Source: a virus (Duplodnaviria > Heunggongvirae > Uroviricota > Caudoviricetes). Taken from it: a stretch of 64,000 bases of DNA. Under the pieces are notes generated by a model that was not told the origin of the DNA, did not search any database, and saw nothing but the letters and a program-made list of their open reading frames with translations. This document shows, one piece after another, positions 13,609 through 42,604 of the stretch. Made by a program: the position numbers and the translations under genes. The stretch lies in IMG/VR virus record IMGVR_UViG_2675903313_000009, one strand, 5' to 3'. The number at the start of each line of letters is the position of its first letter. Position 1 is the stretch's first letter.

Positions 13609-13683
13609 GATGGTGTAGCTCAGCGGTAGAGCAGTTGGCTGTTAACCAACTGGTCGGTGGTTCGAATCCACCCACCATCGCCA
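13609..13683 (+). tRNA. tRNA-Asn (anticodon GUU)
   Basis: cloverleaf read by eye: acceptor GATGGTG/CACCATC, anticodon loop CTGTTAA, T-loop TTCGAAT, encoded CCA. Confidence 0.85.
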
Positions 13684-13688
13684 ATTTA

Positions 13689-13775
13689 GGGGAGTTAGTC
13701 CGTAGAGGTAGCGGTGTAGACTGTAAATCTACTGTCATGGCGACTCGGGTGGTTCGACTCCATCACTCCCCACCA
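13689..13775 (+). tRNA. tRNA-Tyr (anticodon GUA), class II with long variable arm
   Basis: acceptor GGGGAGT/ACTCCCC, anticodon stem GTAGA/TCTAC with loop CTGTAAA, T-loop TTCGACT, encoded CCA; D-arm not fully resolved. Confidence 0.7.
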
Positions 13776-13779
13776 AATT

Positions 13780-13855
13780 GCCGGTTTAGCTCAGTTGGTA
13801 GAGCAGTCGCTTTGTAAGCGAATGGCCAGCGGTTCAAGTCCGTTAACCGGCACCA
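13780..13855 (+). tRNA. tRNA-Thr (anticodon UGU)
   Basis: acceptor GCCGGTT/AACCGGC, D-arm GCTC-AGTTGGTA-GAGC, anticodon loop TTTGTAA, T-loop TTCAAGT, encoded CCA. Confidence 0.8.
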
Positions 13856-13863
13856 ACACAACA

Positions 13864-13939
13864 GGTAAGAGCATTGGGCGAATCGGCGATACTGACCCAC
13901 AAGGCCGTAAATCGATAGAGTCAGACCAGTGCTCTTACC
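13864..13939 (+). other. inverted-repeat hairpin between tRNA-Thr and tRNA-Ser (14-bp stem)
   Basis: ggtaagagcattgg pairs with ccagtgctcttacc (one G-U), loop about 48 nt. Confidence 0.5.
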
Positions 13940-14045
13940 GTTGTGATGAATGCACAGGCTGATGTGCCGCAACTACAGTAGTGCGCGCTTTGCGGGGCTT
14001 GCTACAACCCTGTGTCGGAGTTCAGTACCGACCATCACAATAGCT

Positions 14046-14132
14046 GGAGAGTAGGGAGCATGGTGCTCAAGCGGTCTTGAAAACCGTTCCATTGTGCAAA
14101 CGATGATGGTTCGATTCCATTACTCTCCGCCA
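14046..14132 (+). tRNA. tRNA-Ser (anticodon UGA), class II
   Basis: acceptor GGAGAGT/ACTCTCC, anticodon stem GCGGT/ACCGT with loop CTTGAAA, long variable arm, T-loop TTCGATT, encoded CCA. Confidence 0.7.
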
Positions 14133-14324: not shown

Positions 14325-15587
14325 TTACTTTACATAGTCGCCCAGTTTTAATATTTCGCGCTTATATTCTTTAACCATGCTACTGGATTCAGTATAAATT
14401 CGATTTAAAAGATTATCGCTATCTTTATTCTCATTTATCTTAATGAGTGATAATTTAAATTCATAGTCATCAAATGCCACAATCAAATGGTGGCCTGGGA
14501 TTATATCTTCGTCACTCTTGAAGTATATATCTTCAAGTATGTAATCTAGTTGATTAGATTTTCTTTTCTCGATGTAATCTTCAGCCATAGCTATTACATC
14601 ATTCCTGTCATTTAACCTGTTTTTTTCGGAAGGCACATCTTCGTAATGTTGCACGATTGAACAACCAATAAGGCGTGGGATGTAAACGTCAAAATGAGTA
14701 ACTCTATCATTCGCGGTTTTAAGTTGTTCCTCAAAGTAGTTTCTTACATGTAAAGGCAACTTCTCAAAGTAATCATTAATTATAGGAGAACAAGGAGTTT
14801 TATAATTCATAAGAACCGACGGTACGAGCTGTGGGCGTCGAAACATCCAGTCCCTTTTAACGTCCGATGGAACATAATAACTTTTAATGATATTATCAAA
14901 ATAATTTATCATTCGAGATTTGAATATTTTATTGAATCTAAGGTTTATGAATGTATCCAGATAAGGCATATTTGAATAAGCATCATCAAAAAATATTTCA
15001 TCATTGAAAAAATCATATTTATTCAATAAACAACACAGTTTTTCCGAATTAATATGTTCACAATAATCGATTTTTAATCCAAAGATAGCAATGATCAACT
15101 TCATCTGAGGTGGGATTTTAAAAATTAATTGTGATACATACGCTCTTTTTTCCTTGAGACATTCCCCATCAATATAAAATGAACTATCCACATACTCAAA
15201 TATATTAATAATATGCTTCACATACTGTATTACCTCATGCTGTTTTACCAATGGGTAATAGAGTCTATGTAACTCATCGCTGTTTAAATTAATTTTGTGT
15301 TTATCGATAATTTGTTTTGCAAGAAGACATAACGCATCATGTTGATTTAATAAGGAATCAAACCATTGTTTAAATGCACTCTTTCGCATTTCGAACAATG
15401 ATTCAGTTGTTAATTGAAGGGCTGAAAAAGCTGCTTTTGCACTTTTTCTCGCTTCGTAGGCATTCCATGCTGTTGCTATAAAAGCAAATGCTGTAGCCAA
15501 TGTTCCAACAGTTTGACCATTTAAAACAACCCAATCCCAAAAAATAACGGTGAGCAGTAGTATAATAATGAAAATTAAAAAAGGCAT
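14325..15587 (-). CDS. hypothetical membrane-anchored protein, strongly AT-rich accessory gene
   Basis: 420 aa, N-terminal TM helices then large soluble domain; much lower GC than flanking genes; opposite strand. Confidence 0.6.
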   Translation of the reverse strand: MPFLIFIIILLLTVIFWDWVVLNGQTVGTLATAFAFIATAWNAYEARKSAKAAFSALQLTTESLFEMRKSAFKQWFDSLLNQHDALCLLAKQIIDKHKINLNSDELHRLYYPLVKQHEVIQYVKHIINIFEYVDSSFYIDGECLKEKRAYVSQLIFKIPPQMKLIIAIFGLKIDYCEHINSEKLCCLLNKYDFFNDEIFFDDAYSNMPYLDTFINLRFNKIFKSRMINYFDNIIKSYYVPSDVKRDWMFRRPQLVPSVLMNYKTPCSPIINDYFEKLPLHVRNYFEEQLKTANDRVTHFDVYIPRLIGCSIVQHYEDVPSEKNRLNDRNDVIAMAEDYIEKRKSNQLDYILEDIYFKSDEDIIPGHHLIVAFDDYEFKLSLIKINENKDSDNLLNRIYTESSSMVKEYKREILKLGDYVK

Positions 15588-16217: not shown

Positions 16218-17321
16218 ATGAAAAATAGCTTTGACAGAGCACGCGCTGCGGAGAACACCTCAAAAGAGGCGATTGAGTATCTCGAAAGAGCATCTCAAAT
16301 GCAGGCCGTTATGATCTCGCAGGTCAGCAATGACATGAGATTCTCGGACGCATTCATGTTATTCACTCGCTTATCTCTGCTGATAACAAGACGTCGGCCA
16401 GAGATCGCTGTTCATTGTATTTTGATACATGTTTTGCCGCACATTGCCGATGTAAAAGTAAGTGACATTAATAGGTTCATGGTGAACCAACTGGTCAACC
16501 CACTAATACTGGATGGCAAAATTGTTATGGGCCGCCGCGTTTTCTCTCTGATGAAGCAGTTCCTTAGCTGGTGCGCCTTCCAGGGGATGATAGACGTGTC
16601 ACCGTTAAACGATATGTCACTAAACAAAGTTGCCGGTGGCGCAAAGCCCACACCTCGCGAGCGGAAGCTGACCGACGCAGAGGTATGGGTGTTCTGGAAT
16701 ATATGGGACTACTTCAATGTGTGCGCTGGTACAAAATGGGCGGCCAGGCTGTGTCTTGTATCCGCAAGACGACCTGACGAAGTACTGCGGGCTAAAAAAA
16801 GTGAGTTCAATCTTAAGCGTGGGGTTTGGAATCAAGGCAAGAGGAACAAATCTGCCCGTGAGCATTCGCTGCCTTTAAGCACATTAATGCGCACATGTAT
16901 TGAAGAGTTGTTCGAATACGGTAAAGGCAGCCAGTGGCTCGTGCCTTCGAATAAAAAAATCGGGAAAGACCTTCCTATGTCTAAAGTGGCAATAGCCCAG
17001 GCATTACGTCGTATCCTGGAACGACCAGAACTGATGGAGCTTGAGCCATTTACACCCCGAGACTTGCGCCGTACTGCGCGTAGTTACTTCCCAGCATTAG
17101 GCATAAGCCAGGAGGTATCACGCAAAATCATGAACCACAGTCTTGAGGGGATAGATCGAGTCTACGACCGGCACGATTATATGGACGAGATGCGAGACGC
17201 CTTAGAAAGTTTCTCGACGTACATCGCATCAATCGTAGAGCAACCGGATTTAGACGAAATTGACCACAAATTCAAGGGAGATCGTCTATCAACAGAGCTT
17301 ATTCGTGTAAATTTTTCATAG
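16218..17321 (+). CDS. tyrosine recombinase (integrase/resolvase family)
   Basis: catalytic-domain motifs LVSARRPDE, TPRDLRRTARSYF and HSLEGIDRVYDRHDY (R...H-x-x-R...Y). Confidence 0.8.
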   Translation: MKNSFDRARAAENTSKEAIEYLERASQMQAVMISQVSNDMRFSDAFMLFTRLSLLITRRRPEIAVHCILIHVLPHIADVKVSDINRFMVNQLVNPLILDGKIVMGRRVFSLMKQFLSWCAFQGMIDVSPLNDMSLNKVAGGAKPTPRERKLTDAEVWVFWNIWDYFNVCAGTKWAARLCLVSARRPDEVLRAKKSEFNLKRGVWNQGKRNKSAREHSLPLSTLMRTCIEELFEYGKGSQWLVPSNKKIGKDLPMSKVAIAQALRRILERPELMELEPFTPRDLRRTARSYFPALGISQEVSRKIMNHSLEGIDRVYDRHDYMDEMRDALESFSTYIASIVEQPDLDEIDHKFKGDRLSTELIRVNFS

Positions 17322-17702
17322 AGACTTTATGGCCTCAACAACCTTTTGTGATGCGCCTTTCTCTTTACCGAATCGCTCGTTATATGCAGCAAGAACCTGT
17401 TTTTCGTCCTCGTTAAGAGGAGCGGTGCCTTCTTTGTATAAAAATGCTGCGAGTTCAGGTTGGCGTTCTTCCAGCACCATCATCATAAGACGACTTGGCT
17501 CAATACCCAGCGCCAGCGCCAACGGACGAACCTTATCGATAGGCAAAGGAATTTTGCCACTTTTAATTAAAGAAAGGTTGTTGGCATTTTTATAACCAAT
17601 AAGTCTGGCTATTTGGGCCTGACTCATAGGTGAGGATTCAATCAGCCCTGCGATAAAAGCAGCATAGCGACTTTCTATAAATTCAATCTTGTTGTCAGAC
17701 AT
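17316..17702 (-). CDS. XRE-family helix-turn-helix regulator (repressor-like)
   Basis: HTH SQAQIARLIGYKNANNLSLIKSGK; divergent from downstream genes; palindromic operator in its promoter. Confidence 0.6.
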   Translation of the reverse strand: MSDNKIEFIESRYAAFIAGLIESSPMSQAQIARLIGYKNANNLSLIKSGKIPLPIDKVRPLALALGIEPSRLMMMVLEERQPELAAFLYKEGTAPLNEDEKQVLAAYNERFGKEKGASQKVVEAIKSL

Positions 17703-17952: not shown

Positions 17953-18165
17953 ATGAACACCACTATTTCCAGCCTAATCGCTCTTGAGATCGGACACGTA
18001 CAGAAATTAGCTGATGAGTGTGTAGCTGACATCCTCACCGATCTACCGAATGAGCAGATTCAGGTTGGTGTGAATGACACAACTGGCTTTATATTCGAAC
18101 TTAACAACAAACGCTTCACGCTTCTCAATATCGGCTCCGGGTCTTTAGCCGTCAGAATCTGTTAA
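17953..18165 (+). CDS. hypothetical small protein
   Basis: 70 aa ORF divergent from the repressor gene. Confidence 0.4.
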   Translation: MNTTISSLIALEIGHVQKLADECVADILTDLPNEQIQVGVNDTTGFIFELNNKRFTLLNIGSGSLAVRIC

Positions 18166-18263: not shown

Positions 18264-20372
18264 ATGTCTAAAAAACGTTCCATCAAAGAGGTTCAGGACT
18301 TCCGTGACAGTGTAAAACGAGTAGTCGCTCTCCTTTCAGGTAAAAACATCCCTGTTGCAGAACGAGGGGACGACGCTTATGTACGCTATAACGATGATGG
18401 AGAGCCAATTCTCGTAAACATCCCATCAATCCCGGATAACGCAACACCGGCATTGATGAATGCTGTGCGCGGATTTCTCGATCATGAGGTTGCTCACATT
18501 TTGTTTACCGATATTCGTGTGTCCAACAAAATGAGAGAAAAAGGACGCGTTCCTTCCTGGTCGCTATGGAATGCCTTAGAAGACGTGTTCATCGAGCGAA
18601 AAATGGGTCAGGTCTTTAACGGAACAAGACGTAATCTGATGGCAACTCAGCGCCTTATAATCGAAAAAGTCTTTAAACCAAAGGCTTCAGAGGCTATTGC
18701 TTATTGTGGCAAAGATCAGCGCGCGCTTTTTCTAAACTTCTTTCTCTGTCCGGTTGTAAGAGCCTGGGATGGCCAAGCACCGTTCGTAGATTTCATGGAT
18801 GAACATTGGCCTGTCATTGAGAAACCAATTTCATTATTAAAAGAACATGGTATCGATGTGGCCGTGCGTAACATGTCTTGCACCGAGGATTGTGTAAAGG
18901 TGGCTGCGACCATAGCTAAGATCCTCAAAGACACTGAAAGTGAAAGCAAAGGTAAGGAGTCAGCTCCGGGAAAAACTTCCGATCCTTCAGACGCTGACCA
19001 GACGGATGCCTCTGGAGAAAACAATGAAGACAACGAAGATCATGAGACTCCCTCAGTGTTAGATAATTACAAATCTATCAAATCAGAATCACATAGTAAG
19101 TACAAACATGATAATAACGACAGTGATGATTCAGATAATTCTGAATCATCAGAAACAATATTCGATGATACAGAAAATGATAAAGAGGTATCAGATTCTG
19201 ATGCTTCTGATAACGCGGCGTCAGAATCATTAACCGCTGACCACGAAAAAAGAAAAACGACAGAAGACGGCTCTTCAGATATCCCAACTCCGTCAAAAAT
19301 GAGTCTGGAAGAGGCTTTAGAGGAGTTGGATAGCATGGAAGATGAAGTCGGAGGCATGACAGAAGATGCGCTATCCGAAACGATTAAAAGCGAGTTAACA
19401 GAAAGCTCGAAAAGCGAATACAGGCCATACAATCGCTCATACGACTTCATCGGCTCGATTGATCAGGCAGAAGCCCATATCAAACGGCTTATTAAAACAT
19501 TCTCCGATATTGATTTGGGAGGATATCCAATCAGCCGCTATCGCATCGTTCCTGAAGGCAACCAGCTCTTCGACAAATATATTGAAAAGCATCTTTCGTC
19601 AGGTGTTTCGTCGACGCTGGCAAAAGACCTGGAGCGAGCAATAGCAAGCAGAAACAGAGTTCAGTTTATACCGGGCCAGCGTCGGGGGCGCATTCATGGT
19701 TCTAGTATCTACAGATTAGCAATGAATGATGCTCGCGTGTTTCGTAAAAAAGAAGAATCTAAAGCCGTTAACGCCTGTGTTCAACAAGTGATTGATTTAT
19801 CAGGTTCAATGAGTGGTATAACGATTAAACTGGCTCTTGCAAGTGCATATACCATCGCCGATGCCCTTGATCGAATAAATGTTCCCAACATTATCACCGG
19901 CTTCACTACATTTGGTAGTCATATGGCGGCAGGAGAACTTAAGGCTGTCAAGTATGAGTTCTCTCGCTTTGAATCTTTAATGCTACCTATCATCAAAAAT
20001 TGGAATGAAAAGGTAAATTCTCGCGAAGTTCGCTCACGTATGGGGTGCGTAGGCTACACATTCCCACTTCTTAATAACGTGGATGGTGAAAGCATAGCCA
20101 GCCTTGCATCGTTATTTTCCGGTCGCATGGAGGACAGGAAGATCATGCTTGTTCTGAGTGATGGCGCGCCGTGGGCTGTTGGGAGAGGTTTTGACGCTCA
20201 TTTGCGTTCAGTTGCGAAGCAAATTGAAACGCAGACTGATATTGATTTGATGGCAATTGGCATCATGACTGACGCACCGGAGAGATTTTACTCAAATCAT
20301 GCCCTGGTAACGAGCGTTGATAGTCTTGGTTCATCTGTAGTTACTGAACTATCTCGTATCATTTTAAAGTGA
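18264..20372 (+). CDS. von Willebrand factor A domain protein with acidic linker (CobT-like)
   Basis: MIDAS motif IDLSGSMSG in the C-terminal domain; 140-aa D/E/S-rich central stretch. Confidence 0.65.
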   Translation: MSKKRSIKEVQDFRDSVKRVVALLSGKNIPVAERGDDAYVRYNDDGEPILVNIPSIPDNATPALMNAVRGFLDHEVAHILFTDIRVSNKMREKGRVPSWSLWNALEDVFIERKMGQVFNGTRRNLMATQRLIIEKVFKPKASEAIAYCGKDQRALFLNFFLCPVVRAWDGQAPFVDFMDEHWPVIEKPISLLKEHGIDVAVRNMSCTEDCVKVAATIAKILKDTESESKGKESAPGKTSDPSDADQTDASGENNEDNEDHETPSVLDNYKSIKSESHSKYKHDNNDSDDSDNSESSETIFDDTENDKEVSDSDASDNAASESLTADHEKRKTTEDGSSDIPTPSKMSLEEALEELDSMEDEVGGMTEDALSETIKSELTESSKSEYRPYNRSYDFIGSIDQAEAHIKRLIKTFSDIDLGGYPISRYRIVPEGNQLFDKYIEKHLSSGVSSTLAKDLERAIASRNRVQFIPGQRRGRIHGSSIYRLAMNDARVFRKKEESKAVNACVQQVIDLSGSMSGITIKLALASAYTIADALDRINVPNIITGFTTFGSHMAAGELKAVKYEFSRFESLMLPIIKNWNEKVNSREVRSRMGCVGYTFPLLNNVDGESIASLASLFSGRMEDRKIMLVLSDGAPWAVGRGFDAHLRSVAKQIETQTDIDLMAIGIMTDAPERFYSNHALVTSVDSLGSSVVTELSRIILK

Positions 20373-20467
20373 ACAAAACAGCCTTAACGATAAGTAACCA
20401 CTTACGATATATAATGATATATTTATATAAGAAGTTGAACGCTCATTAGAGAACAAAGGAAAAACGC

Positions 20468-21703
20468 ATGACGACTACTGCACTGCAAAATGAAAAAAAT
20501 CCTTCTGATTACCTTGTTTGCAAGTGGTGCGGCAAATCATTTCACTATTTTAAGTCCCATGTAGCCAATGGTAATTGCGAGGGCATTCCTGAGTCAGTAA
20601 AAGATGCCGATCCTGACACCGTACTGAAAATGTACACAACGCAGTTTCCAGATGAACCAACGCTATCGAAAAAGGCACTTGATGCAATTCAAGCTAAACG
20701 TGCCGAGCAAAAAAGCGAAATGGCCAAATCTTCTGGCTTGACCAGTAGCCCTGGCTACACAGGCACAGTTGAGTACAAGACAGATCTGGTCGCAGCTCAC
20801 GAACTGCTAAACGTAACGGTGGAAGAACTCGGAACAAAACGTGGGACGCCGCTCATGGTTAGCGTCAACGTCAATACGCCGTATCCAGAGTTCGTTCCCG
20901 AAGTGAAGAAAGGCTACGTATATGGCGACTTCGAACTGATCAAAGATATTTTCATGATGCTTGAACTTGGCATACCTGGCTATTTGTGGGGTCATGCAGG
21001 AACAGGCAAATCGTCATTGCCTACACAGCTATGTGCTTTGCTCAATCGTCCGTTGATCCGTGCCCAACATACAGCATCAATGGAAGAGGCACATGTTACG
21101 GGGCAAATTCTGGCGCGTGATGGCTCTACGTATTTCGAACCTGGCTTGCTTGCGCTCGCAATGAAGCATGGCTGGGTTTACCTCGCGGATGAATACGACT
21201 TTGCGTTTCCACAAATTCTTGGCGTGTATCAGCCAGTGCTGGAAGGTGAAGCGTTGGTCATCAAAGAGGCAACTCCAGAATGGCGTCGCATTACTCCGCA
21301 TGAACGGTTTGCTTTCATTGGCACTGGCAACACGAACGGATCTGGTGATGAAACCGGCTTGTACCAGGGTACAAACATCCAGAACGCCGCGAACTTTTCG
21401 CGTTTTGGCATCGTTTCGAATGTGAAATACATGAGCAAAGACGCAGAGATCAACATGTTGACAAATGCAGGCATCGTGGATGAATACGCTGAAAAGATGG
21501 TTAAGTTTGCCGGTATCGTTCGCGATGGATACGAAGAACACCTCATTAGTCAGCCAATTGGCCCTCGTGAACTTTTGTTGTCGGCCAAGATTGGAATGAT
21601 GCGAGGCGACTTTGTGACAGGTATTGAGCGTTCTTTCATTAACAAACTCCCTTCAGCTTCTGCACAAGCGGCTCGTGAAGTTGTTCAAAAAATATTTGGT
21701 TAA
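20468..21703 (+). CDS. AAA+ ATPase (CobS/MoxR-like)
   Basis: Walker A GHAGTGKSS, Walker B VYLADEYDFA; N-terminal CxxC...C cysteine cluster. Confidence 0.65.
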   Translation: MTTTALQNEKNPSDYLVCKWCGKSFHYFKSHVANGNCEGIPESVKDADPDTVLKMYTTQFPDEPTLSKKALDAIQAKRAEQKSEMAKSSGLTSSPGYTGTVEYKTDLVAAHELLNVTVEELGTKRGTPLMVSVNVNTPYPEFVPEVKKGYVYGDFELIKDIFMMLELGIPGYLWGHAGTGKSSLPTQLCALLNRPLIRAQHTASMEEAHVTGQILARDGSTYFEPGLLALAMKHGWVYLADEYDFAFPQILGVYQPVLEGEALVIKEATPEWRRITPHERFAFIGTGNTNGSGDETGLYQGTNIQNAANFSRFGIVSNVKYMSKDAEINMLTNAGIVDEYAEKMVKFAGIVRDGYEEHLISQPIGPRELLLSAKIGMMRGDFVTGIERSFINKLPSASAQAAREVVQKIFG

Positions 21704-21705
21704 TC

Positions 21706-21909
21706 GTGCGTAAAGGATGTTTCGGCTCTCTTATCGCTGCTTCTGAAACTGGTAAGGCTTGTCTGGTGTGTCCAGACAAGCCCGATTGTCACCAATCAGC
21801 AAAAGAAGTTGCGATTTCGATGCATGGGAAGTTCGTAGGCTTCCCCAATGACAAAATCAAAAAAACCAGAAAGGTAAAAACACATGAAGGCACTGATGGT
21901 TCGAACTGA
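21706..21909 (+). CDS. small Cys-rich hypothetical protein (uncertain)
   Basis: 67 aa, GTG start, overlaps the polymerase start region. Confidence 0.3.
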   Translation: MRKGCFGSLIAASETGKACLVCPDKPDCHQSAKEVAISMHGKFVGFPNDKIKKTRKVKTHEGTDGSN

Positions 21910-24900
21910 CTTCTCACTTGGGGAGTCGGCTCTAAAAGCAGAAAACGCGGTGAAGATTGCCAGAGAAGCTGGCTACACCGCTGTAATTTCAGCAGATAGC
22001 ATGAATATTGCGAGCGTTATTCCACTACAACGTGCCGCTGGTGACGACATGGCGGTTATTTGTGGTGTGAAACTAAACATTGTTGATGATCCCACATACG
22101 AGCACCGGGCTAAACTTGCTAAAGAATCTATGAGATGTATGGAATCATTAGAGCGGGGACGTAACTACTCGTTTACCGCTCTAATTAAAAATGAGCAAGG
22201 ATATCGCGACATCTGCGAACTAATGACGGTGGCCAACACACGAGAACAGTTCTACTTTGTACCGCGTCTCTCGCTCGAAAAGTTGGTTTCTACATATGCC
22301 AAAGGCAACATCATCCTGCTCACTTCCGACATCGGTAGCGTGTTCCAACGCAACGATTTTGCAAAAATCATAAGCTCACTGATTACAGCGGGCGGGAAAG
22401 ACAACTTCTATAGTGTGGTTTATCCGCACCCTACCCCATTCTACGACCAGATTAACGTCCGAGCGATGAAAGTCGCCAGCGCACTGAAAATAGAGCCAGT
22501 AGCGTTCTATCCCGCTTATTACGAATCGATCGACGATGCAGACATTAAAGACATTGCGCACATGGTTACGAACAACATAAAAATCGACCAGCCGCATCGT
22601 CTGCGTATCCCCCACCAGCGAGATAACGCCATCAATGGTCGTCGCCATCTCCTTGAGGCGCTTAAAGCCTTCTCCGTTCGCATGGATGTGCCGGTAACAG
22701 CTGCAATGGCCTCAACAACGCAGGACTCCATTATCGATGCCTGCACATGGCGCTGGCATGAATTGCCACCAGCACTGCCCAAGATGGCAGACGACGAACC
22801 TGCAACGCTGATGAAACTGGCTGTTGCAGGGCTGCGTAAACGTCTTACCACAAAAGAGTTTGGATACACACCACCTGCTTCTGAGAACAGGGTTTATGTT
22901 GAGCGGCTAAAGTACGAAATGGACACGCTGACTCGCCTGGGATTCTGTGGTTACTTCCTGATGGTACGCGATCTGATGAATCACAGCCGTGAAACTGGCA
23001 TTCCTGTCGGGCCTGGTCGTGGTTCCTCTGCCGGTTCTCTGGTGGCGTGGTGCATAGGCATAACCAACGTCGACCCAATCCGTCACGGTCTTCTGTTTGA
23101 GCGTTTCATCAACCCTGAGCGTCTCGACTTGCCGGATGCGGACTTGGACTTCAGCCAGGCACGTCGCCATGAGGTGATCGAGTATCTGAATGAACGCTAC
23201 GGCGAAGATTACGTTGCAGGCATTCCGAACTTCACCTACCTGGGCGCAGCCTCTGCACTACGTGACACCGCTCGTATTTATGGTGTGGAGTCCGCAGATA
23301 TGGCGGTATCAAAAGAACTGAAGAACGTCGAGGATGATAGCCTTCCATTGGAAGAGCTGCGCGAACAACTGGCAAGTCTCGACAAATACGCAACAAAATA
23401 TCCTGATGCATTCAATGCAGCCTGCAAGTTACAAAGCCTTATGCGTGGCTTTGGTAGACATGCGGCAGGGATGATCGTAGCAGGTGTTCCTCTAACAGAA
23501 CGTACACCGGTTGAGCGCCGTGGTGACGCGCGTTGTATCGCATTTGACAAGCGTTACTGCGAGGCTATGGGCCTAATTAAGCTGGACGTACTTGGTCTGG
23601 CAACTCTCGATTTGCTCGATAGTGCAAAACGCTACATAAAAGAGAACACAGGTGAAGATATCAATCTTGATGCCATTTCTCTTGAAGATCGCAAGGTGCT
23701 GGATGGTTTTGCTGCTGGGTACACTCAAGGTGTTTTCCAGCTTGAATCAGGCCCAATGCGCAAGCTGCTTAAAGATTTAGGTGGTGGAATTGAGCCAATG
23801 AGCTTTAAAACGGTTGTTGCTACGACTGCGCTCTTCCGGCCGGGGCCAATTCAGTCAGGCATGTTGGATGACTATGTTTCTGTAGCCAAAGGCTTTATGA
23901 CGCCGGAATCATTACACCCCGTTCTTGATGAACTTACCGCAGAAACAAATGGCGTGATTCTCTATCAGGAACAGACGATGAACGCGACTCGATTGCTTGC
24001 TGGCTTCACAATGGCTGAAGCTGACGGCGTTCGTAAAGCGATCGGTAAAAAAGACATGGAAAAAATGAAGAGCATGGGCGAGAAGTTCATCGTTCAGGCT
24101 CAAGCTGGCTGGATAGACGTTGAGCTGGAAGATGGCACTACACAGCGCATTCACCGTGCGGAACATTTTAAATGCGAAGACGGAACTCTGAAAACTGTCG
24201 AAGAGGCACTTGAGTACGGCGCAAAACTACCTATAAACGCAGTACGCGTTACAGCGTCACATCCAGGGCTATCAGAGATGAAAGCGAAGGAGATCTGGAC
24301 CGCATTCGAAAAGAATGGTGCCTACCAGTTCAACAAATCACACTCTGTTGCTTACTCCTTAATCAGTTATCAATCTATGTGGTTGAAAACTCATTATCCC
24401 GCGGAGTTCTTCGCTGCTGCTCTCACTATTCTTGGCGAAGATAAACACCAGGGGCTGGTTAAAGATGCGCTGACCTATGGTATTCGCGTATTGCCACCAG
24501 ACGTTAACGTGTCATCTAACCGAATCGAGATCCGCACGCTTGAAGATGGCAGCCAGGTGCTGTATGCGCCCTTCTCTGCTGTGAAAGGGTGTTCTGAGAA
24601 TGGCTGCCAAGCCATCATGAGAGCGCGAGAAAAAGTTGGCGGCAAATTCGAGTCACTGGCGCAATTCGAAGAAGCTGTCGAGAAACGTGCCTGTAATAGT
24701 CGAGTGCGCGAATCGCTGCAAAAAGTAGGGGCGTTTGCATCCATCGAGCCAGGCAGTCTGCCAGCAACTGATCCAGAGCGCCTACGCGACCAGGCTGAAT
24801 TGATGGGAAACCTTGTCATAGACGCAGTTAAAGCCTCACGTCCGTTTGAGATGAACCCCAAACGTTCGGCTGAAATTAACGTACTCATGACGCGGATGGC

Positions 24901-25402
24901 GGCTGAAATGGGCTTAGGTGATGAACTAATCCGCCCCAGCATTGGTATTAAGCCGAAAATCATGATCATTCTGGACAATGCGAACGGCAATGATGCTCGA
25001 ACCGGTTACTTTATGGAGAACGGATACGACGACTTTAAGGCCAAGCTATTGACGGCTGGAGATTTACGCATGGGCGATCTCTATGTCACAGGTGTTTGCA
25101 AGAAGGTTAAAGACAAAGAAAAAGACTACACCAAAGACGAGATCGGCCAGTTCACCGACTTTATGCGTGAAGAGATCAATCTGGTGCGTCCGACCTATGT
25201 GCTGACGTGTGGCAGCCGGGCAACTTCATTGTTTAACAACAAAAACAAGCCATCCGATTTGGTCGGCAGGAAGGAGTATCTTCCAGACCTTGACGTTACT
25301 GTCTTTTACGGGTTTAACCCCAACATTCTTTACTTCAGACCTGAAGAGGGAGAACGACTAGAAGCGATATTAGCCGACGTAGCAGAAACCATTAAGACGT
25401 GA
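21884..25402 (+). CDS. dnaE: DnaE-type (DNA polymerase III alpha-like) replicative polymerase
   Basis: 1172 aa; segments GIPVGPGRGSSAGSLVAW, LLFERFINPERLDLPD and FNKSHSVAYSLISYQSMWLKTHYPAEF closely parallel E. coli DnaE. Confidence 0.9.
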   Translation: MKALMVRTDFSLGESALKAENAVKIAREAGYTAVISADSMNIASVIPLQRAAGDDMAVICGVKLNIVDDPTYEHRAKLAKESMRCMESLERGRNYSFTALIKNEQGYRDICELMTVANTREQFYFVPRLSLEKLVSTYAKGNIILLTSDIGSVFQRNDFAKIISSLITAGGKDNFYSVVYPHPTPFYDQINVRAMKVASALKIEPVAFYPAYYESIDDADIKDIAHMVTNNIKIDQPHRLRIPHQRDNAINGRRHLLEALKAFSVRMDVPVTAAMASTTQDSIIDACTWRWHELPPALPKMADDEPATLMKLAVAGLRKRLTTKEFGYTPPASENRVYVERLKYEMDTLTRLGFCGYFLMVRDLMNHSRETGIPVGPGRGSSAGSLVAWCIGITNVDPIRHGLLFERFINPERLDLPDADLDFSQARRHEVIEYLNERYGEDYVAGIPNFTYLGAASALRDTARIYGVESADMAVSKELKNVEDDSLPLEELREQLASLDKYATKYPDAFNAACKLQSLMRGFGRHAAGMIVAGVPLTERTPVERRGDARCIAFDKRYCEAMGLIKLDVLGLATLDLLDSAKRYIKENTGEDINLDAISLEDRKVLDGFAAGYTQGVFQLESGPMRKLLKDLGGGIEPMSFKTVVATTALFRPGPIQSGMLDDYVSVAKGFMTPESLHPVLDELTAETNGVILYQEQTMNATRLLAGFTMAEADGVRKAIGKKDMEKMKSMGEKFIVQAQAGWIDVELEDGTTQRIHRAEHFKCEDGTLKTVEEALEYGAKLPINAVRVTASHPGLSEMKAKEIWTAFEKNGAYQFNKSHSVAYSLISYQSMWLKTHYPAEFFAAALTILGEDKHQGLVKDALTYGIRVLPPDVNVSSNRIEIRTLEDGSQVLYAPFSAVKGCSENGCQAIMRAREKVGGKFESLAQFEEAVEKRACNSRVRESLQKVGAFASIEPGSLPATDPERLRDQAELMGNLVIDAVKASRPFEMNPKRSAEINVLMTRMAAEMGLGDELIRPSIGIKPKIMIILDNANGNDARTGYFMENGYDDFKAKLLTAGDLRMGDLYVTGVCKKVKDKEKDYTKDEIGQFTDFMREEINLVRPTYVLTCGSRATSLFNNKNKPSDLVGRKEYLPDLDVTVFYGFNPNILYFRPEEGERLEAILADVAETIKT

Positions 25403-25409
25403 TCCCATA

Positions 25410-25439
25410 AACATGGCCTCTATGGCCATGTTTTCTCTT
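25410..25439 (+). terminator. rho-independent terminator
   Basis: stem aacatggcc/ggccatgtt followed by ttttctctt. Confidence 0.7.
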
Positions 25440-25527
25440 ATCCCCTCATATCCCCTATCCTCGAACTCCTTGCCTTATCATCACAATGATATAATCAATA
25501 TAAGATGATAAGTAAAAAGGAAAGCAC

Positions 25528-25959
25528 ATGATCACCGATATTTACGAGAAAATAATGTCTGATCTCGAGTTTGACCGAGACAATCTGGAGGAAGTCTGGC
25601 GTAGACAACCCCGCCTTTTAATGGAGTATGGCTCAAAACTCGCTCATGCAGAAAGAAGTGTCGCAGAGGCAAAACTTAACCTTGAAGCTGTTGAAGCAAA
25701 GCTATACGACACAGAGCGTAAGAACTTGAGTATGAACGGCATTAAGTTCAACGAATCTGTACTGGACGCTAAGGTTAAAACAAACCCACAGTATCTGTCT
25801 AAACGGCAGAAGTTGGATGAAGCACGGCACATCGCAGACATATACAAACATGCTGTCGCCGCCTTTTCGCATCGCCGAGACATGATCGTTCAGGCGTCAA
25901 AGATGGCCATCGTTGAATTAGAGCGATTAGGCTCTGAACGCTTTATTACTCCCCGTTGA
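25528..25959 (+). CDS. hypothetical coiled-coil protein
   Basis: 143 aa; conserved start context aaaaaggaaagcacATG. Confidence 0.5.
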   Translation: MITDIYEKIMSDLEFDRDNLEEVWRRQPRLLMEYGSKLAHAERSVAEAKLNLEAVEAKLYDTERKNLSMNGIKFNESVLDAKVKTNPQYLSKRQKLDEARHIADIYKHAVAAFSHRRDMIVQASKMAIVELERLGSERFITPR

Positions 25960-26076
25960 TTTTTGATAGATAATAAGTATGTACTGATCTATTATTTAAC
26001 AGCTCGAAAGAGCCACGAATGAACGAAAGCCCAACGCGCATAGCGCCATCGGCCAAATCACAACAAGGAGAAACAC

Positions 26077-27105
26077 ATGTCTAAGACATTACTTGATTTG
26101 CTTAACAAAACTCGTGAAGACATTGCCGCCAAACGTGGTAACAACGTTGATCTGACTCGCTTAAAAGACGGCGTCAACTATATCCGCATCTTCCCGAATA
26201 AAGACGACCCAAACGGTAAGTTCTTCCAGACTTTCGGTATGCACTACGTTAAGTATCAGAACGAGGAAGGTAAAGAAGCAACCAACGCTTATATTTGTGA
26301 GCAACATACTCACGGTCGCGCTTGTCAGCTATGCGAAATGGTGATGGAAGGTCGCGCTCGTCACAAGGGTAACAAAGCAATGGAAGAACGCATCGGTCAA
26401 ATGCGTGCCACTCCTCGCTACCTGGTCAACGGCATTCTTTCTGCTCGTGAGGATTTCGCAGATGCTGAGAAATGCCAGTTAATCGAGCTGCCGTCTACTG
26501 TATTCGATGATATCTGCAAAGCAATCACCGAAGACATCGCTGATGATATCGGCAATCCACTGAGCAAAGAGGAAGGCTACGCATTCCTGATTAAACGTAC
26601 TGGCTCTGGTCGCGATACCAAATATGACGTCTCGCCTAAGCGTAAAGTCTACAAAGGCGATATCGAAGATAAATTCTGGAACACCCAGCATGATCTGATC
26701 GCATACGCAAATCAGGCTGATGAAACTCGTCTTCTGTCGACAGTTCGCACTATGGGTCGTCTGATTGGCATCGCTGCACCAACTGCCGCAGCATCTGCAC
26801 CAGCAATTTCCTCAACCGCGAAAACATCGGCTGCGGCACTACCTGGATTTGGCTCTGTCACTGGTCATACAGAAGGAGCGACTGCTGTAGCAACCGCTCA
26901 CACCCCAGCTTCTGAACCAACCAGTCTGGTTGATGAAGAAATCCTCCGTGCCGTTGAAACTGAATTTAAACCAGAGGCAAGTTCCGCTGCCGTTGCCGTA
27001 TCAGTCAAAGAGTCTGAAGCAGTCGCAGCGACATCTGTAGCAACCGCATCTGCGACGGAAGATGAAGGTCTGGATGACCTACTGAGAGAGCTGGACTCTC
27101 TGTAA
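26077..27105 (+). CDS. putative single-stranded DNA-binding protein
   Basis: Cys/His cluster CEQHTHGRACQLC, Ala/Thr-rich linker and acidic C-terminal tail EDEGLDDLLRELDSL; sits between polymerase and nuclease genes. Confidence 0.4.
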   Translation: MSKTLLDLLNKTREDIAAKRGNNVDLTRLKDGVNYIRIFPNKDDPNGKFFQTFGMHYVKYQNEEGKEATNAYICEQHTHGRACQLCEMVMEGRARHKGNKAMEERIGQMRATPRYLVNGILSAREDFADAEKCQLIELPSTVFDDICKAITEDIADDIGNPLSKEEGYAFLIKRTGSGRDTKYDVSPKRKVYKGDIEDKFWNTQHDLIAYANQADETRLLSTVRTMGRLIGIAAPTAAASAPAISSTAKTSAAALPGFGSVTGHTEGATAVATAHTPASEPTSLVDEEILRAVETEFKPEASSAAVAVSVKESEAVAATSVATASATEDEGLDDLLRELDSL

Positions 27106-28378: not shown

Positions 28379-29452
28379 ATGGCAAAAGGAAAATCCGCAC
28401 TGGCACTTGCTCTGAAAAAGAAAATCGGTAGCAACGACGAAATTCAGAAAGTAACTCATTGGATTGATACAGGCTTTCCACCGTTAAACAAAGCTATTTC
28501 TGGTCGTTACGATGGCGGCTTCCCATGTGGTCGTATCGTCGAAGTATTCGGTCCTCCAAGTGCAGGGAAAACGTTCCTTGCAACAGCAGCGATGATCTCC
28601 GCTCAAAAACAAGATGGTCTGGCGGTATTCCTCGATCATGAAAACAGTTTTGACGTTGGCCTGGCTGTAGCCAATGGCCTGAACGCAGATGAGGATGACG
28701 GTCAGTGGGTATACAAGCAGCCTGACACCTTCGAAGACTCTGTAGAGTTGATCGGCACAATACTTAAATTGGTACGTGATGAAGAGCTTATCCCTGAATC
28801 AGCACCTATCTGTATCGTGGCTGACTCACTTGCGTCTATGGTTCCGAACTCCAAAGCCGAGAAGTTCGAAAAGATGGCTGAAGGCACTGCCAAAGACAAA
28901 GATCAGCTAAACATGAACGACAATACGGCACTGGCTCGTGCGACAAGTGCGAACTTCCCTACTCTGGCTTTGTGGGCACGCAAATACAACGCCTGCATCA
29001 TCTTCTTGAATCAGGTTCGCACAAAAATCGGTGTAATGTTTGGCGACCCTACTACGTCGCCAGGTGGAGATTCACCGAAGTTCTACGCTTCTGTACGTAT
29101 CCGTCTTGGTGCATCGGTGATGAAGGATGGTAAAGAGAAGATCGGCCAGGACGTAGGCGCAGAATGCATCAAAAACAAAGTTGCACCACCGTATGGCAAA
29201 TGCACCTGGAAATTCTACTTCGATCCTACTCGTGGCCTCGACGTTATCGAATCGCTCGTCGAGTACATGCTGGAAGAAGGATACCTGCCAAAGAACGCCA
29301 GCGGGCGAGTTGAAATTGGTGACAAGAAATACACCAAATCGCAGATCGTCGAGATGTATCGGGAGAAGCCACTGGCTGAAATCATTGCGGCTTTGCAGGC
29401 AATCGACGACCGAAGAGCAAAAGACAACCCCACCGAGTCAGTAGAAGAGTAA
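28379..29452 (+). CDS. RecA-like recombinase
   Basis: GRIVEVFGPPSAGKT Walker A, FLNQVRTKIGVMFGDPTTSPGGDSPKFYASVRIRLG and KNKVAPPY parallel E. coli RecA. Confidence 0.9.
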   Translation: MAKGKSALALALKKKIGSNDEIQKVTHWIDTGFPPLNKAISGRYDGGFPCGRIVEVFGPPSAGKTFLATAAMISAQKQDGLAVFLDHENSFDVGLAVANGLNADEDDGQWVYKQPDTFEDSVELIGTILKLVRDEELIPESAPICIVADSLASMVPNSKAEKFEKMAEGTAKDKDQLNMNDNTALARATSANFPTLALWARKYNACIIFLNQVRTKIGVMFGDPTTSPGGDSPKFYASVRIRLGASVMKDGKEKIGQDVGAECIKNKVAPPYGKCTWKFYFDPTRGLDVIESLVEYMLEEGYLPKNASGRVEIGDKKYTKSQIVEMYREKPLAEIIAALQAIDDRRAKDNPTESVEE

Positions 29453-32237: not shown

Positions 32238-32770
32238 ACCGCTGACAGCATACACAATCAACTACCGCTGATAGCATATCGAGAGTCTATATCACCGCTC
32301 ACAGCATACTTTACTCGATTTTTTACCGCTGGCAGCATACTTAAGACATTGCATGAATAATGTGTACCGGTATGGGTATAACCAGAACAAAATTACCGCT
32401 GGCAGCATACGAAGGTCTGACATATACCATTAATTACCGCTGATAGCATATCCAAACAAAAATTCCTCAATAAAACACCGCTGACAGCATACGTTCTATC
32501 AGGGAGCAGCAGGCAATAAATGCCTTTCACTACAAGCAATCAGCGCAATAGCAATAGAATGTTAGTGAGCGCAAACCTATATGGAATGCACTCTTCGAGG
32601 TTAGTAACCACTGGGGAGGTATGACAGAGCATTGAGTGGTGATAGATGATTTACCGCTCACAGCATACGTTTATCTCACTATACCGCTGGTAGCATATCT
32701 TTAACCGTTCACAGCATACTTTTCAGAAAAATAGCCGCTGATAGCATACATTTCACCGCTGACAGCATAT
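32238..32770 (+). repeat. iteron array downstream of repA (incA-like copy-control locus), 12 copies
   Basis: 16-bp direct repeats ACCGCT(G/C)NYAGCATAY at 32238, 32264, 32294, 32325, 32395, 32436, 32477, 32653, 32683, 32704, 32734, 32755. Confidence 0.8.
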
Positions 32771-33864
32771 CAAAGCAGTTTGAGACTATTGGAAAGGATC
32801 TCAATCATCTTGATATTTTCAGGCGTCAAATTCTGCGAAAGTTCGGTTATCTTGTTGATAATGTTCTGTTTGGCATCAATTTCCCCAGCTTTCTCATCTG
32901 GTTTTTTGGGTTCGATGTCTTCAGGTTTTGGCGGTGCGACTTTGAGTTTTGGATTGCGGCTGTGAATCTGGATATAGATCGACCGCCCTCGCTTAATCTC
33001 GCTGTATTCGAGATAGCCCAAATCTTGGAGAGCTTTTAAGCCGTTACGTATAGTCTGATTCTGCGAGCTGACATTCCTGCTACTCAAATTGAGTCGCGCA
33101 CGTAATCGAGCAAGCGATACCGGCGCAGGCTTGGTTGGAAGACTTTCGATGAAGGTGTACAGAGCCTGTGCTGTTTCTTTGCGTGGTAGCTTATTGATAA
33201 CCTTTAACTGCAAAAGAACCTTATGGTCAAAGCGATATAGTTCGGCCAGCTTCGGTTCTGCATAGAACACCACCGTATCTTTCTGCTCGTTGTAGTCCAC
33301 GCTATTGATGAGGTGCACCATCAGAAGCGAGATCTTGTTAGAGCCGTCGACATTCTTTTCTTCATACGTTCTCTGAAAAGACAGAGTTGTACGCATGATC
33401 TTCAAAAGACTGTTTGTAAGCCGGTCGCGGAGTGTTTTGCGGATCTGTGACGATGGATAGCCACAAAACTTCGCAAATTTCGTGATGCTTAACTCGACAC
33501 GACCGTTAGGTTCGCCGTATTCTGCCAGCGAACGCACAACGCCCACCCACGTTTTGAAATCATGATCCATGTCGAGACGAGGACCGGTTATCTTGATATC
33601 GGAATAACCTTCAGAACGGGCTACTTCGAGCTGAACAAGCTCCTTTGAAGCATCGATCTCATTTGGCTTATTACGCTTGCTGTATTTTGTCCCCTTGAGC
33701 GTGGGCACGAACAACCCCAGCCGCATCAACGCAATTGGTTGGACTGTATTGTTGCTATTAGGGACAAGTTCCCCTGTGTACAATTCAAGGGAACCTTCTT
33801 CAAAGTTGTCGAGATTATCTTCTACTTCTTTGTTATTTTTACCTTTTTTATTTTTTGTGGACAT
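32770..33864 (-). CDS. repA: iteron-binding replication initiator (RepA/Rep3-like)
   Basis: 364 aa basic protein flanked on both sides by iterons; ATG at 33864 preceded by aaagg; ORF open to 33984. Confidence 0.7.
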   Translation of the reverse strand: MSTKNKKGKNNKEVEDNLDNFEEGSLELYTGELVPNSNNTVQPIALMRLGLFVPTLKGTKYSKRNKPNEIDASKELVQLEVARSEGYSDIKITGPRLDMDHDFKTWVGVVRSLAEYGEPNGRVELSITKFAKFCGYPSSQIRKTLRDRLTNSLLKIMRTTLSFQRTYEEKNVDGSNKISLLMVHLINSVDYNEQKDTVVFYAEPKLAELYRFDHKVLLQLKVINKLPRKETAQALYTFIESLPTKPAPVSLARLRARLNLSSRNVSSQNQTIRNGLKALQDLGYLEYSEIKRGRSIYIQIHSRNPKLKVAPPKPEDIEPKKPDEKAGEIDAKQNIINKITELSQNLTPENIKMIEILSNSLKLL

Positions 33865-33884
33865 GTGGACACCTTTGTCATTCA

Positions 33885-33986
33885 ACCGCTGACAGCATAC
33901 TTGATTTGCCGCTGGCAGCATACCAAAAACAGTTGGCAGCATACGGCGAACCGTTGACAGACTATCAATTACCGCTGGTAGCATAC
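33885..33986. repeat. origin-proximal iterons (incC-like), 3 intact plus 2 degenerate
   Basis: accgctgacagcatac, gccgctggcagcatac, accgctggtagcatac plus partial copies, immediately upstream of repA. Confidence 0.75.
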
Positions 33987-36651: not shown

Positions 36652-36692
36652 GGCAAAGTCGTTATGGGAGCTTTCGAGACTTTGCCATCACG

Positions 36693-42498: not shown

Positions 42499-42561
42499 CA
42501 TATGGTGGGGGATATCCCCACCTTCTCTTTGATTTGTAAGCCTTGTTTAAACACATAAGAT

Positions 42562-42573: not shown

Positions 42574-42604
42574 AAACGCACCAAAAAAGAAAAAGGAAAA
42601 ACAC

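Follow-up and report, generated by a model that had tools for sequence, protein, structure and literature searches.

The DNA analysed here is a 64,000-nucleotide stretch (one strand) of the IMG/VR virus record IMGVR_UViG_2675903313_000009, a member of the Caudoviricetes; it is called the window below, and all positions count from its first letter. The window is part of an SSU5/Cyrano-type phage-plasmid of Escherichia coli, the whole element measuring about 108 kb. Over a 4-kb region, its identity amounts to 99.5% with Escherichia phage CMS-2020a and 98.5% with Cyrano (pLF82), against 75% with Salmonella phage SSU5. The hosts of the SSU5/Cyrano/PhiR41_1 group include E. coli, K-12 among them. 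The subject of this study is a pair of adjacent genes encoding a CobT-like adaptor and a CobS-like AAA+ ATPase, together with the small cysteine-rich open reading frame (ORF) that follows them. The three ORFs (18264-20372, 20468-21703, and 21706-21909, all on the + strand) occupy positions 18264-21909, where an earlier description made from the letters alone (the original prediction) had placed them. Its assignment of a vWA domain carrying a MIDAS (metal-ion-dependent adhesion site) and of an AAA+ domain is borne out by matches to Pfam CobT, CobT_C, and AAA_5, and by the Walker motifs. Chance can be set aside, since the matches are strong and the element, here 99.5% identical, has been widely sequenced. 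What the prediction had missed is an M48-like domain with an intact HExxH motif, located in the N-terminal third of the adaptor.

The adaptor and the ATPase

The two genes and their parts are as follows.

18264..20372, + strand: CobT-like adaptor, 702 amino acids, with a peptidase-like N-domain, an acidic linker, a basic shaft-like segment, and a vWA/MIDAS domain
18264..18938, + strand: N-domain, residues 1-225, M48-like gluzincin fold (helix, three-stranded sheet, helical bundle)
18483..18497, + strand: HEVAH (H74-E75-x-x-H78), zinc-peptidase active-site motif
18570..18596, + strand: N103-x-x-E106-D107-x-x-x-E111, on the long helix that follows, a candidate for the third ligand of zinc ('glutamate helix')
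18939..19463, + strand: acidic, Ser-rich disordered linker, residues ~226-400, delimited by composition
19623..19751, + strand: conserved basic segment, residues ~454-496, K..lER...G.R.GR...RL...D.RVFR.K, delimited by alignment to 9uka_G (the Brucella CobT 'shaft')
19773..20366, + strand: vWA domain with MIDAS (D511, S513, S515, T548/T549, D633), Pfam CobT_C, aligning to the crystal structure 21vt_A
20468..21703, + strand: CobS-like AAA+ ATPase, 411 amino acids, MoxR/chelatase branch
20498..20647, + strand: predicted N-terminal zinc-finger module of the Ros/MucR type, residues ~11-60 (C18, C21, H26, H31), modelled with a predicted local distance difference test score (pLDDT) of 80-94
20990..21013, + strand: Walker A, GHAGTGKS, residues 175-182
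21176..21193, + strand: Walker B, VYLADE, residues 237-242

The adaptor belongs to phrog_1576 (E 6e-301), and its identical CobT-like cluster counts 3,307 member sequences, within a wider family of roughly 5,000 members. It matches Pfam CobT over residues 9-294 (E 1.5e-26) and CobT_C/vWA over residues 492-701 (E 3e-82). Among PDB sequences, it matches the CobT chains 21vt_A (1.3e-15) and 9uka_G (2.4e-13), for which only its C-terminal part is aligned. In an alignment of 147 relatives, the MIDAS DxSxS (D511-S513-S515), the FTT at 547-549, N605/D607, and S632-D633 are kept, the basic shaft-like segment (~454-496) is conserved, and the linker has no conserved columns; the total length of close homologues varies from 649 to 790 residues. 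The linker had been described as a 140-residue acidic stretch; it is real, but longer, with about 175 residues (226-400), a net charge of -35, and 48% D/E/S. Tandem repeats were sought in the linker DNA, and nothing meaningful was found. In Brucella CobT, the shaft corresponds to Q373-R413 and inserts into the CobS ring, as seen by cryo-electron microscopy (bioRxiv 10.64898/2026.07.21.739949).

The conservation of the peptidase motif was assessed on the 150 best representatives from a library of 1.8 billion proteins, taken as one per 50% cluster and ~29-74% identical to the adaptor. HExxH stands at the same place in 98% of the full-length ones (143/146). An alignment of 26 N-domains (28-44% identity) has H74, E75, H78, N103, E106, D107, E111, G120, N124, and R166 among its invariant residues, and the AlphaFold model built from it (pLDDT 92.5) places both E106 and E111 on the helix spanning residues 98-117. 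The modelled domain is structurally similar to M48 catalytic domains, with HExxH on the active-site helix. Compared with M48 peptidases (Ste24/ZMPSTE24, HtpX, and BepA), with which it shares only 7-12% identity, the N-domain is soluble and fused to a vWA domain, and its HExxH motif is separated from the candidate Glu ligand by ~28-33 residues, while this spacing is longer in M48 enzymes. A fold search of viral models retrieved the same N-domain fold in vWA proteins of siphoviruses, podoviruses, haloarchaeal tailed viruses, and actinophages, and the CobT-like protein of Vibrio phage ICP2 keeps both a HECYH motif and the vWA domain. A minority of CobT-like proteins found in the same synteny (Pseudomonas phage hairong, L089 8007-10085, and P0311, P0337, and P0353) carry SEIAK, KEVAN, HQVAL, or QQVAR instead. 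This loss parallels the inactivation found in cellular CobT.

The N-domain of Brucella CobT, whose structure has been solved, displays the same helix/sheet/bundle topology and was likened by its authors to an M48C peptidase domain (bioRxiv 10.64898/2026.07.21.739949). Its sequence, which was recovered by a query with a rhizobial CobT N-terminus, contains no HExxH. The phage and Brucella domains both match Pfam PF06213 over the same profile span. Nevertheless, Brucella CobT_N was not retrieved from PDB sequences by the phage N-domain profile, even with E values up to 10. Aligned locally as a pair, the two domains score 42, which is not significant (30 ± 4.3 for shuffles, with a maximum of 47), and hhalign gives only a 44% probability. 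No residue-by-residue equivalence of the two domains is therefore claimed; the comparison is confined to the common Pfam family and span, the common fold description, and the lack of HExxH in cellular CobT, and the sequence similarity can be detected by profiles only. The cellular CobT adaptor thus has a dead peptidase fold, while the phage family keeps the catalytic signature, cleavage itself being predicted from motif and fold. This contrast suggests that the cellular adaptor may descend from a peptidase-vWA protein whose active site was lost.

The only match of the N-domain profile among PDB sequences was the anti-CRISPR protein AcrIIA26 (9zq6_B, E 0.005), over 47 residues with the motif LNxxEDxFIE...G..N, corresponding to adaptor residues ~94-140 (window ~18543-18683). 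This similarity was set aside as probably fortuitous, and AcrIIA26 is described as an acidic DNA mimic with a novel fold.

The ATPase matches Pfam AAA_5 (residues 173-293, E 2e-15). Its best PDB match is CobS (9ujv_A, E 1.1e-25, residues 142-411), followed by midasin, CbbQ, and NorQ. The Walker A and B motifs, sensor-1 N288, the Arg finger R312, and sensor-2 R367 all of them needed for hydrolysis, are invariant among 44 homologues, and the latter three residues have as counterparts N186, R210, and R271 of Brucella CobS, whose roles are taken from bioRxiv 10.64898/2026.07.21.739949. In the AlphaFold2 model (pLDDT 86.7), the finger module (11-60) leads into a long helix; a disordered stretch and a small beta unit come next, ahead of the complete AAA+ module, whose helix-2-insert hairpin lies at 212-225. 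An AAA_5 ATPase with a helix-2 hairpin, encoded beside a MIDAS vWA gene, places the pair in the MoxR/chelatase clade, and this adjacency is kept in seven lineages.

Compared to CobS, the ATPase has an additional N-terminal region of ~140 residues, where the original prediction had pointed out a cysteine cluster. C18 and C21 are indeed conserved, but C37 is not, and the site resembles a C2H2-type finger completed by H26 and H31: these four residues are kept in 103-110 of 112 ATPase homologues. A profile of 18 ATPase N-termini matches the Ros87 finger (PDB 2jsp, E 6.8e-4), with which the family consensus ItCxxCGxxxHxIxxHLxxxHP can be aligned, and 12 of these 18 N-termini match Pfam PF05443 (ROS_MUCR; best E 2e-5). 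The window copy itself reads C18-x2-C21-x9-H31, without a His at +3 to +5 (C37 is at +6). At the family level, the ATPase N-terminus is thus predicted to be a C2H2-type Ros/MucR finger, which may bind DNA. Ros/MucR regulators stand alone, whereas here the finger is fused to an AAA+ ATPase, and the window copy is divergent; a literature search found no paper mentioning a Ros/MucR finger fused to a CobS-like ATPase. In the roseophage CRP-810 lineage, the N-terminal 360 residues of the ATPase contain no Pfam domain, and this lineage therefore offers no independent support for DNA targeting.

The closest structurally characterised system is the CobS/CobT pair of Brucella melitensis (PDB 9ujv, 9uka, 21vt, and 21vu; bioRxiv 10.64898/2026.07.21.739949). 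CobS has the same AAA+ module with the same Walker, sensor, and Arg-finger residues, and CobT has, in the same order as the phage adaptor, a PF06213 M48-like N-domain, an acidic disordered linker, a shaft, and a vWA-MIDAS domain, the two genes being adjacent. The architecture of the CobNST components is thus found here in full: Walker A/B, sensors, and Arg finger in the ATPase; N-domain, acidic linker, shaft, and vWA-MIDAS in the adaptor. Because the ATPase, the C-terminal half of the adaptor, and its PF06213 N-domain all match Brucella CobST, the phage pair is homologous to CobS/CobT and very probably assembles in the same way. It differs from Brucella CobST by the absence of CobN from the window and the host, by HExxH and its Glu, by the ~140-residue ATPase extension carrying the finger, and by its location in a replication context rather than in a cob operon.

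The predicted operon and its four-cysteine protein

Downstream of the ATPase, the following features complete the predicted transcription unit.

21706..21909, + strand: four-Cys protein, 67 amino acids, C5-x13-C19-x2-C22-x5-C28; its GTG start lies 2 nt past the ATPase stop, and its end overlaps the DnaE start at 21884
21884..25402, + strand: DnaE-type replicative polymerase (PHP, pol III alpha, finger, HHH), with which the unit ends
25409..25433, + strand: terminator-like hairpin with a 10-bp stem, directly 3' of DnaE, from a consensus scan

The adaptor, the ATPase, and the 67-residue ORF look like one operon running into DnaE. In the consensus scan, the hairpin was the only terminator-like site of the + strand between 18264 and 25433. 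The promoter scan yielded 9 sites, against 13.1 ± 3.7 expected, and no promoter is claimed; the repeats found in the intergenic region between the repressor and the operon are short and unconvincing.

The location of the pair between the repressor/integrase genes and the polymerase, as originally described, is part of a wider pattern. The order ligase - adaptor - ATPase - (sigma-like gene) - four-Cys protein - DnaE - x - gp32 - exonuclease - RecA recurs in SSU5, in marine phage contigs (~100 kb), in an Ectothiorhodospira prophage and another prophage, and in the lytic Pseudomonas Nickievirus; the CobS-like proteins of these syntenic relatives are 42-47% identical to the window ATPase. In the podovirus ICP2, the pair lies directly 5' of the primase, helicase, and family A polymerase genes. 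In all seven lineages examined, the pair belongs to an early/replication module, near ligase, primase, helicase, or polymerase genes, and it was never seen among head or tail genes in the loci examined. A scan of viral contigs with the N-domain alignment returned only close SSU5-type relatives (67-100% identity) and was uninformative for distant synteny; the distant gene contexts were thus taken from other contig searches and from the phage collection. In the marine and prophage relatives, a gene resembling sigma-70 region 2 (~207-242 residues) is inserted between the CobS-like and four-Cys genes (L083 9182-9856, L085 9185-9832, L087 9254-9877, and L090 11362-12090); it is absent from the window and from Nickievirus.

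Published RNA-seq data of the Cyrano lysogen provide information on expression. The values for CYRAN_47 (adaptor), CYRAN_48 (ATPase), and CYRAN_49 (DnaE) are 7.8, 6.7, and 10.1, at or below prophage background, compared with 95.8 for the repressor and 141 for HicB. Based on the replication-module context, the silence in lysogeny, and the existence of a separate Rep3 initiator, the pair is considered a repressed lytic-cycle function co-regulated with the phage replisome, and neither cargo expressed during lysogeny nor a plasmid-maintenance gene.

The small Cys-rich ORF is a real gene, in agreement with the original prediction, and all its four cysteines (C5, C19, C22, and C28) are kept in all full-length homologues (14 homologue clusters). 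It corresponds to phrog_6337 (E 3e-45), a short form of the phrog_3616 proteins: it matches the N-termini (first ~35 residues) of phrog_3616 proteins of 170-216 residues that precede DnaE (blastp 4e-8 to 3e-4). In these distant relatives, the C-terminal part of the phrog_3616 proteins bears a conserved 'SHVSI' motif, and the SSU5 group retains the 67-residue Cys module only. Functionally, this ORF belongs with DnaE and not with the CobST pair. The motif GCFG-x11-13-C-x2-C-x5-C is found directly 5' of DnaE in 5/5 DnaE-type relatives (L083 nt 9874, L085 nt 9893, L087 nt 9900, L089 nt 11518, and L090 nt 12120), and it is absent from the ICP2 and CRP-810 loci, where CobST is present and DnaE is not. 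The four-Cys module may assist the phage polymerase as an accessory factor of the zinc or iron-sulfur type.

Several assignments of this protein and its neighbour were considered and rejected. As it co-varies with DnaE rather than with CobST, the 67-residue protein is not retained as a third component or a client of the pair, and DnaE is not retained as an obligate partner, since ICP2 uses a family A polymerase. A WhiB-like (Wbl, 4Fe-4S) identity was also tried: the Wbl spacing is C-x(14-22)-C-x2-C-x5-C, versus C-x13-C-x2-C-x5-C in the ORF, and no Pfam Whib match was obtained at E up to 5. One homologue has a 'Wbl-type' name in UniRef, a label that was not adopted.

Candidate functions of the pair

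With a probability of about 0.55, the two proteins form an ATP-driven machine for protein remodelling, within the chelatase/MoxR branch of AAA+ proteins, and not a cobalamin enzyme; its synthesis would fall early in the lytic cycle, alongside that of the phage polymerase. This remodeller is probably proteolytic and possibly DNA-tethered. By homology to Brucella CobS-CobT, the ATPase would form a hexameric ring, on which the adaptor would dock via its N-domain, threading the basic segment ~454-496 into the pore. ATP hydrolysis would move the vWA domain of the adaptor, whose MIDAS would hold an acidic residue of the client protein; the general MoxR-vWA mechanism is summarised in PMC7159879. The captured client would probably be cut by the zinc-peptidase site (H74, E75, and H78, with E106/E111), because the adaptor N-domain keeps this site complete, unlike cellular CobT; alternatively, the site may bind a metal, activity being suggested by the motif and the fold. 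The putative Ros/MucR-type finger of the ATPase would probably bring the machine to DNA; as client, a host protein bound to DNA or a part of the phage replisome would be likeliest. A possible role in replisome assembly, put forward by the original prediction, fits the conserved operon context. That the function of such pairs in phages is not established, as the prediction also noted, is stated in PMC11288001.

Several points weigh against this reading. The searchable literature yielded no experiment on a CobS/CobT-like pair of any phage. The window copy of the finger has no significant PF05443 match and has C37 where the family has its last His, and the ICP2 ATPase is devoid of a finger altogether. 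HExxH has been lost by some relatives in the same synteny (Nickievirus, with SEIAK, and P0311, P0337, with HQVAL, and P0353), so catalysis is not indispensable everywhere. The operon structure relies on a consensus scan whose hit counts are not above chance, and gene neighbourhood reflects co-expression, not shared function. Finally, CobN was looked for in 64 kb of the ~108-kb element.

A more specific version of the remodelling machine, tentative and on the unlikely side, is a DNA-tethered AAA+/vWA zinc protease, in which the ring would be positioned on DNA by the finger, and a DNA-bound protein captured by the MIDAS would be cut by the M48-like domain. The targets considered are a host nucleoid or silencing protein, a stalled part of the replisome, or a DNA-protein crosslink. 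If true, the protease would clear the template for the phage DnaE replisome, as a phage counterpart of Cdc48-Wss1/SPRTN or Lon; such a protease, once inactivated, would have given rise to cellular CobT, and the assignment of the many viral 'cobS/cobT' genes of viromes to B12 auxiliary metabolism would be mistaken.

The pair could also be a chaperone inserting a metal cofactor in a phage enzyme, as NorQ/NorD does with iron for NO reductase, or as CoxD/CoxE or MoxR; in this version, HExxH-Glu would hold the metal, and the client would be, for example, the di-iron NrdB, the PHP domain of DnaE, or the four-Cys protein, all three being metalloproteins encoded by the same element. The nearest characterised relatives (CobST, CbbQ, and NorQ) are all metal-insertion or enzyme-activation systems, and the sporadic loss of HExxH with synteny kept shows the core function to do without peptidase chemistry. 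Such a role is unlikely, however. The pair is also present in phages lacking DnaE and the four-Cys protein (ICP2 and CRP-810), no co-variation with any single candidate client was found, and HExxH with an invariant catalytic Glu (E75) is a signature of hydrolysis, not of metal storage. Moreover, E. coli is not known to need any such system to mature its class Ia ribonucleotide reductase (RNR) and DnaE. The general role of MoxR-vWA pairs in metal insertion is reviewed in PMC7159879. More broadly, NorQ/NorD, CbbQ/CbbO, RavA/ViaA, CoxD/CoxE, and midasin share with the phage pair an AAA_5-type ATPase with the helix-2 insert and a MIDAS vWA partner. NorQ, CbbQ, and midasin are much more distant from the window ATPase than CobS (E 1e-3 to 1e-12, versus 1e-25), and no peptidase domain has been reported in the vWA partners of the other MoxR-vWA pairs.

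A chaperone-protease folding and trimming structural proteins during virion assembly is quite unlikely. This role was proposed for the group 2.2 jumbo phages (Iyer, Anantharaman, Krishnan, Burroughs, and Aravind 2021, PMC7824862), in which a MoxR-type ATPase is encoded beside a protein fusing an N-terminal metallopeptidase to a vWA domain, the same architecture as in the window, the likeness being drawn from the architecture as described. The occurrence of the N-domain fold in vWA proteins of many tailed viruses is also consistent with it, and a precedent exists, as a MoxR-vWA pair is needed for tail development in the Acidianus two-tailed virus. Nevertheless, the jumbo-phage proposal is itself an inference, the window pair stands in the replication operon of a ~108-kb phage-plasmid, and its early/replication location in all seven lineages, never among head or tail genes in the loci examined, argues against morphogenesis, for which a chaperone with a DNA-binding-type finger would not be expected. 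The published description of the jumbo-phage pair includes neither a zinc finger on the ATPase nor a relation to the inactive N-domain of cellular CobT.

Equally doubtful is a role in conflict, either as a vWA-MoxR host-defence system, or as an early counter-defence protease acting on immune proteins (as proposed for the ArdC metalloprotease). Such modules are common in bacterial conflict systems (PMC7159879), early lytic expression would suit counter-defence, and the weak profile match to AcrIIA26 (E 0.005) points in the same direction. Defence during lysogeny is disfavoured by background expression in the Cyrano lysogen, and the genes belong to the core of strictly lytic phages (Nickievirus and ICP2). 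The only PADLOC match, to DrmE (E 9e-4), falls inside the low-complexity acidic linker and is not meaningful. Counter-defence, which the original prediction had suggested, receives no direct support: anti-defence genes are typically variable and accessory, whereas the pair keeps one fixed place within the replication module in hosts whose defence repertoires differ greatly, and the AcrIIA26 similarity covers 47 residues of a DNA mimic with a novel fold.

The last alternative is the auxiliary metabolic one, in which a cobaltochelatase would arise from viral CobS/CobT and a CobN (or ChlH-like) subunit recruited from the host, and would raise cobalamin in support of B12-dependent nucleotide synthesis. 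It has been published for the cobST clusters of archaeal and cyanobacterial viruses (PMC8651126), and the homology is clear, including the MIDAS, the shaft-like segment, and the PF06213 N-domain; some relatives, like cellular CobT, have also lost HExxH. However, both proteins miss the cut-offs of the NCBIfam equivalogs ~6- to 11-fold (86.6 bits for the ATPase against 558.55 for CobS, TIGR01650, and 66.2 bits for the adaptor against 759.05 for CobT, TIGR01651). HExxH, kept in 98% of representatives, would be unneeded by a pure chelatase adaptor, and the ATPase has an additional Ros/MucR-type finger. The 64-kb window contains no CobN-sized ORF, DnaE being its only ORF above 771 residues. In E. 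coli, only the B12 salvage enzymes CobU/S/T/C are found, which are unrelated proteins with shared names. E. coli is not known to have a de novo aerobic B12 pathway or CobN, nor are Vibrio cholerae and Klebsiella, other hosts of the family, known to have CobN. The element moreover encodes a B12-independent class Ia RNR (NrdA/NrdB), which removes the published rationale, namely that viral cobST feeds a class II RNR (PMC8651126). A cobaltochelatase is thus very unlikely: given the lack of CobN, a B12-independent RNR of its own, an intact peptidase site, and an ATPase bearing a DNA-binding-type finger, the chelatase reading cannot be maintained for this element.

Nomenclature adds to the confusion. 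In GenBank, CYRAN_47 and CYRAN_48 of Cyrano are named 'dimethylbenzimidazole phosphoribosyltransferase' and 'cobalamin synthetase'. A roseophage paper of 2024 (PMC11288001) likewise mixes, in its text, chelatase-type CobT/CobS with the unrelated proteins of the Salmonella nomenclature, in which CobT is the DMB phosphoribosyltransferase and CobS the cobalamin synthase.

Viral 'cobST' genes (cyanophage cobS and its neighbouring 'peptidase', ICP2 ORF41/42, and those of haloarchaeal tailed viruses and CRP-810-type roseophages) are homologous gene pairs, regarded as auxiliary metabolic genes of uncertain function (PMC8651126, PMC11288001). They differ in their details, as ICP2 has no zinc finger and a family A polymerase, and CRP-810 has the reverse gene order and a 617-residue ATPase. 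The cyanophage 'peptidase' annotation has been treated as an error (PMC8651126); the conserved HExxH suggests that it may be correct.

Part of this was already known: annotations of the pair exist for SSU5 and Cyrano and for thousands of enterobacterial plasmids, viral cobST genes have been catalogued, and the jumbo-phage MoxR/metallopeptidase-vWA pair has been described. The present analysis adds the contrast between an intact peptidase site in phages and a dead one in cells, made visible by the CobST structures of 2026, along with the Ros/MucR-type finger on the ATPase, the conserved replication-operon context, and the reasons why the B12 reading fails in this element. cobS/cobT are among the most-reported viral 'auxiliary metabolic genes' (a core gene of cyanophages, also found in pelagiphages, roseophages, ICP2, archaeal viruses, and SSU5-type phage-plasmids of clinical Enterobacteriaceae), and they are routinely taken as evidence for virus-boosted B12 synthesis. 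If the present reading is general, a whole class of 'B12 genes' in viromes needs to be re-read, and a conserved ATP-driven machine of the early lytic phase is to be characterised. The pair will not surprise a specialist of MoxR-vWA systems, yet it offers a tractable entry to a very widespread viral gene pair: as the SSU5/Cyrano/PhiR41_1 group grows on E. coli, a question dating from the first cyanophage genomes becomes accessible to ordinary genetics.

The surrounding element

Three other features frame the operon.

17316..17702, - strand: helix-turn-helix (HTH) repressor-like gene, divergent from the operon of the pair, with weak Pfam HTH_19/HTH_37 matches
17953..18165, + strand: 70-residue ORF (phrog_2627), first + strand gene past the repressor region, directly 5' of the CobT-like gene
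32770-33984, - strand: Rep3-type plasmid replication initiator, far from the DnaE-centred lytic replication operon

The counterpart of the repressor gene in Cyrano is CYRAN_45, annotated 'putative repressor' and expressed ~10-fold above background in the lysogen. The separate Rep3 initiator fits two replication modes, one for the plasmid and one for the lytic cycle. The genes near the pair encode a helicase, a primase, an ATP-dependent ligase, four tRNAs, a thioredoxin-fold protein, an integrase, and the divergent HTH repressor. Further downstream, DnaE is followed by a UvsY-like protein, a gp32-type single-stranded DNA-binding protein, a 5'-3' exonuclease, RecA, and the Rep3-type initiator. 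The element also encodes SbcCD (35536-38797), RuvC (39540-40109), and NrdA/NrdB (class Ia) and thymidylate synthase (40183-43747 and 44839-45969), and DNA metabolism accounts for nearly all of the first ~46 kb of the window.

Some of these genes vary between relatives. The four tRNA genes (13609-14132; Asn-GTT, Tyr-GTA, Thr-TGT, and Ser-TGA), of which Cyrano is annotated with three (Asn, Thr, and Ser), lie upstream of the slot occupied by a 420-residue ORF (14325-15587, - strand; phrog_18168, without a Pfam match) located in a low-GC patch (0.36 versus ~0.45). This site is a tRNA/integrase hotspot, and is probably a variable slot for cargo or defence genes; Cyrano has another gene there, CYRAN_43, the top-expressed gene of the prophage in lysogeny. 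In Cyrano, DnaE is also separated from the UvsY-like gene by an inserted toxin-antitoxin pair, HicA/HicB (OV696614, 20240-21088), while in the window (25403-25527) the DnaE hairpin is directly followed by the UvsY-like gene, without HicA/HicB. Finally, the RecA genes of some relatives appear to contain inteins, with an Intein_splicing match in the Ectothiorhodospira prophage (L087 16375-17188) and a 2,340-bp RecA gene in Cyrano (24193-26532), whereas the window RecA (28379-29452, 357 residues) is uninterrupted.

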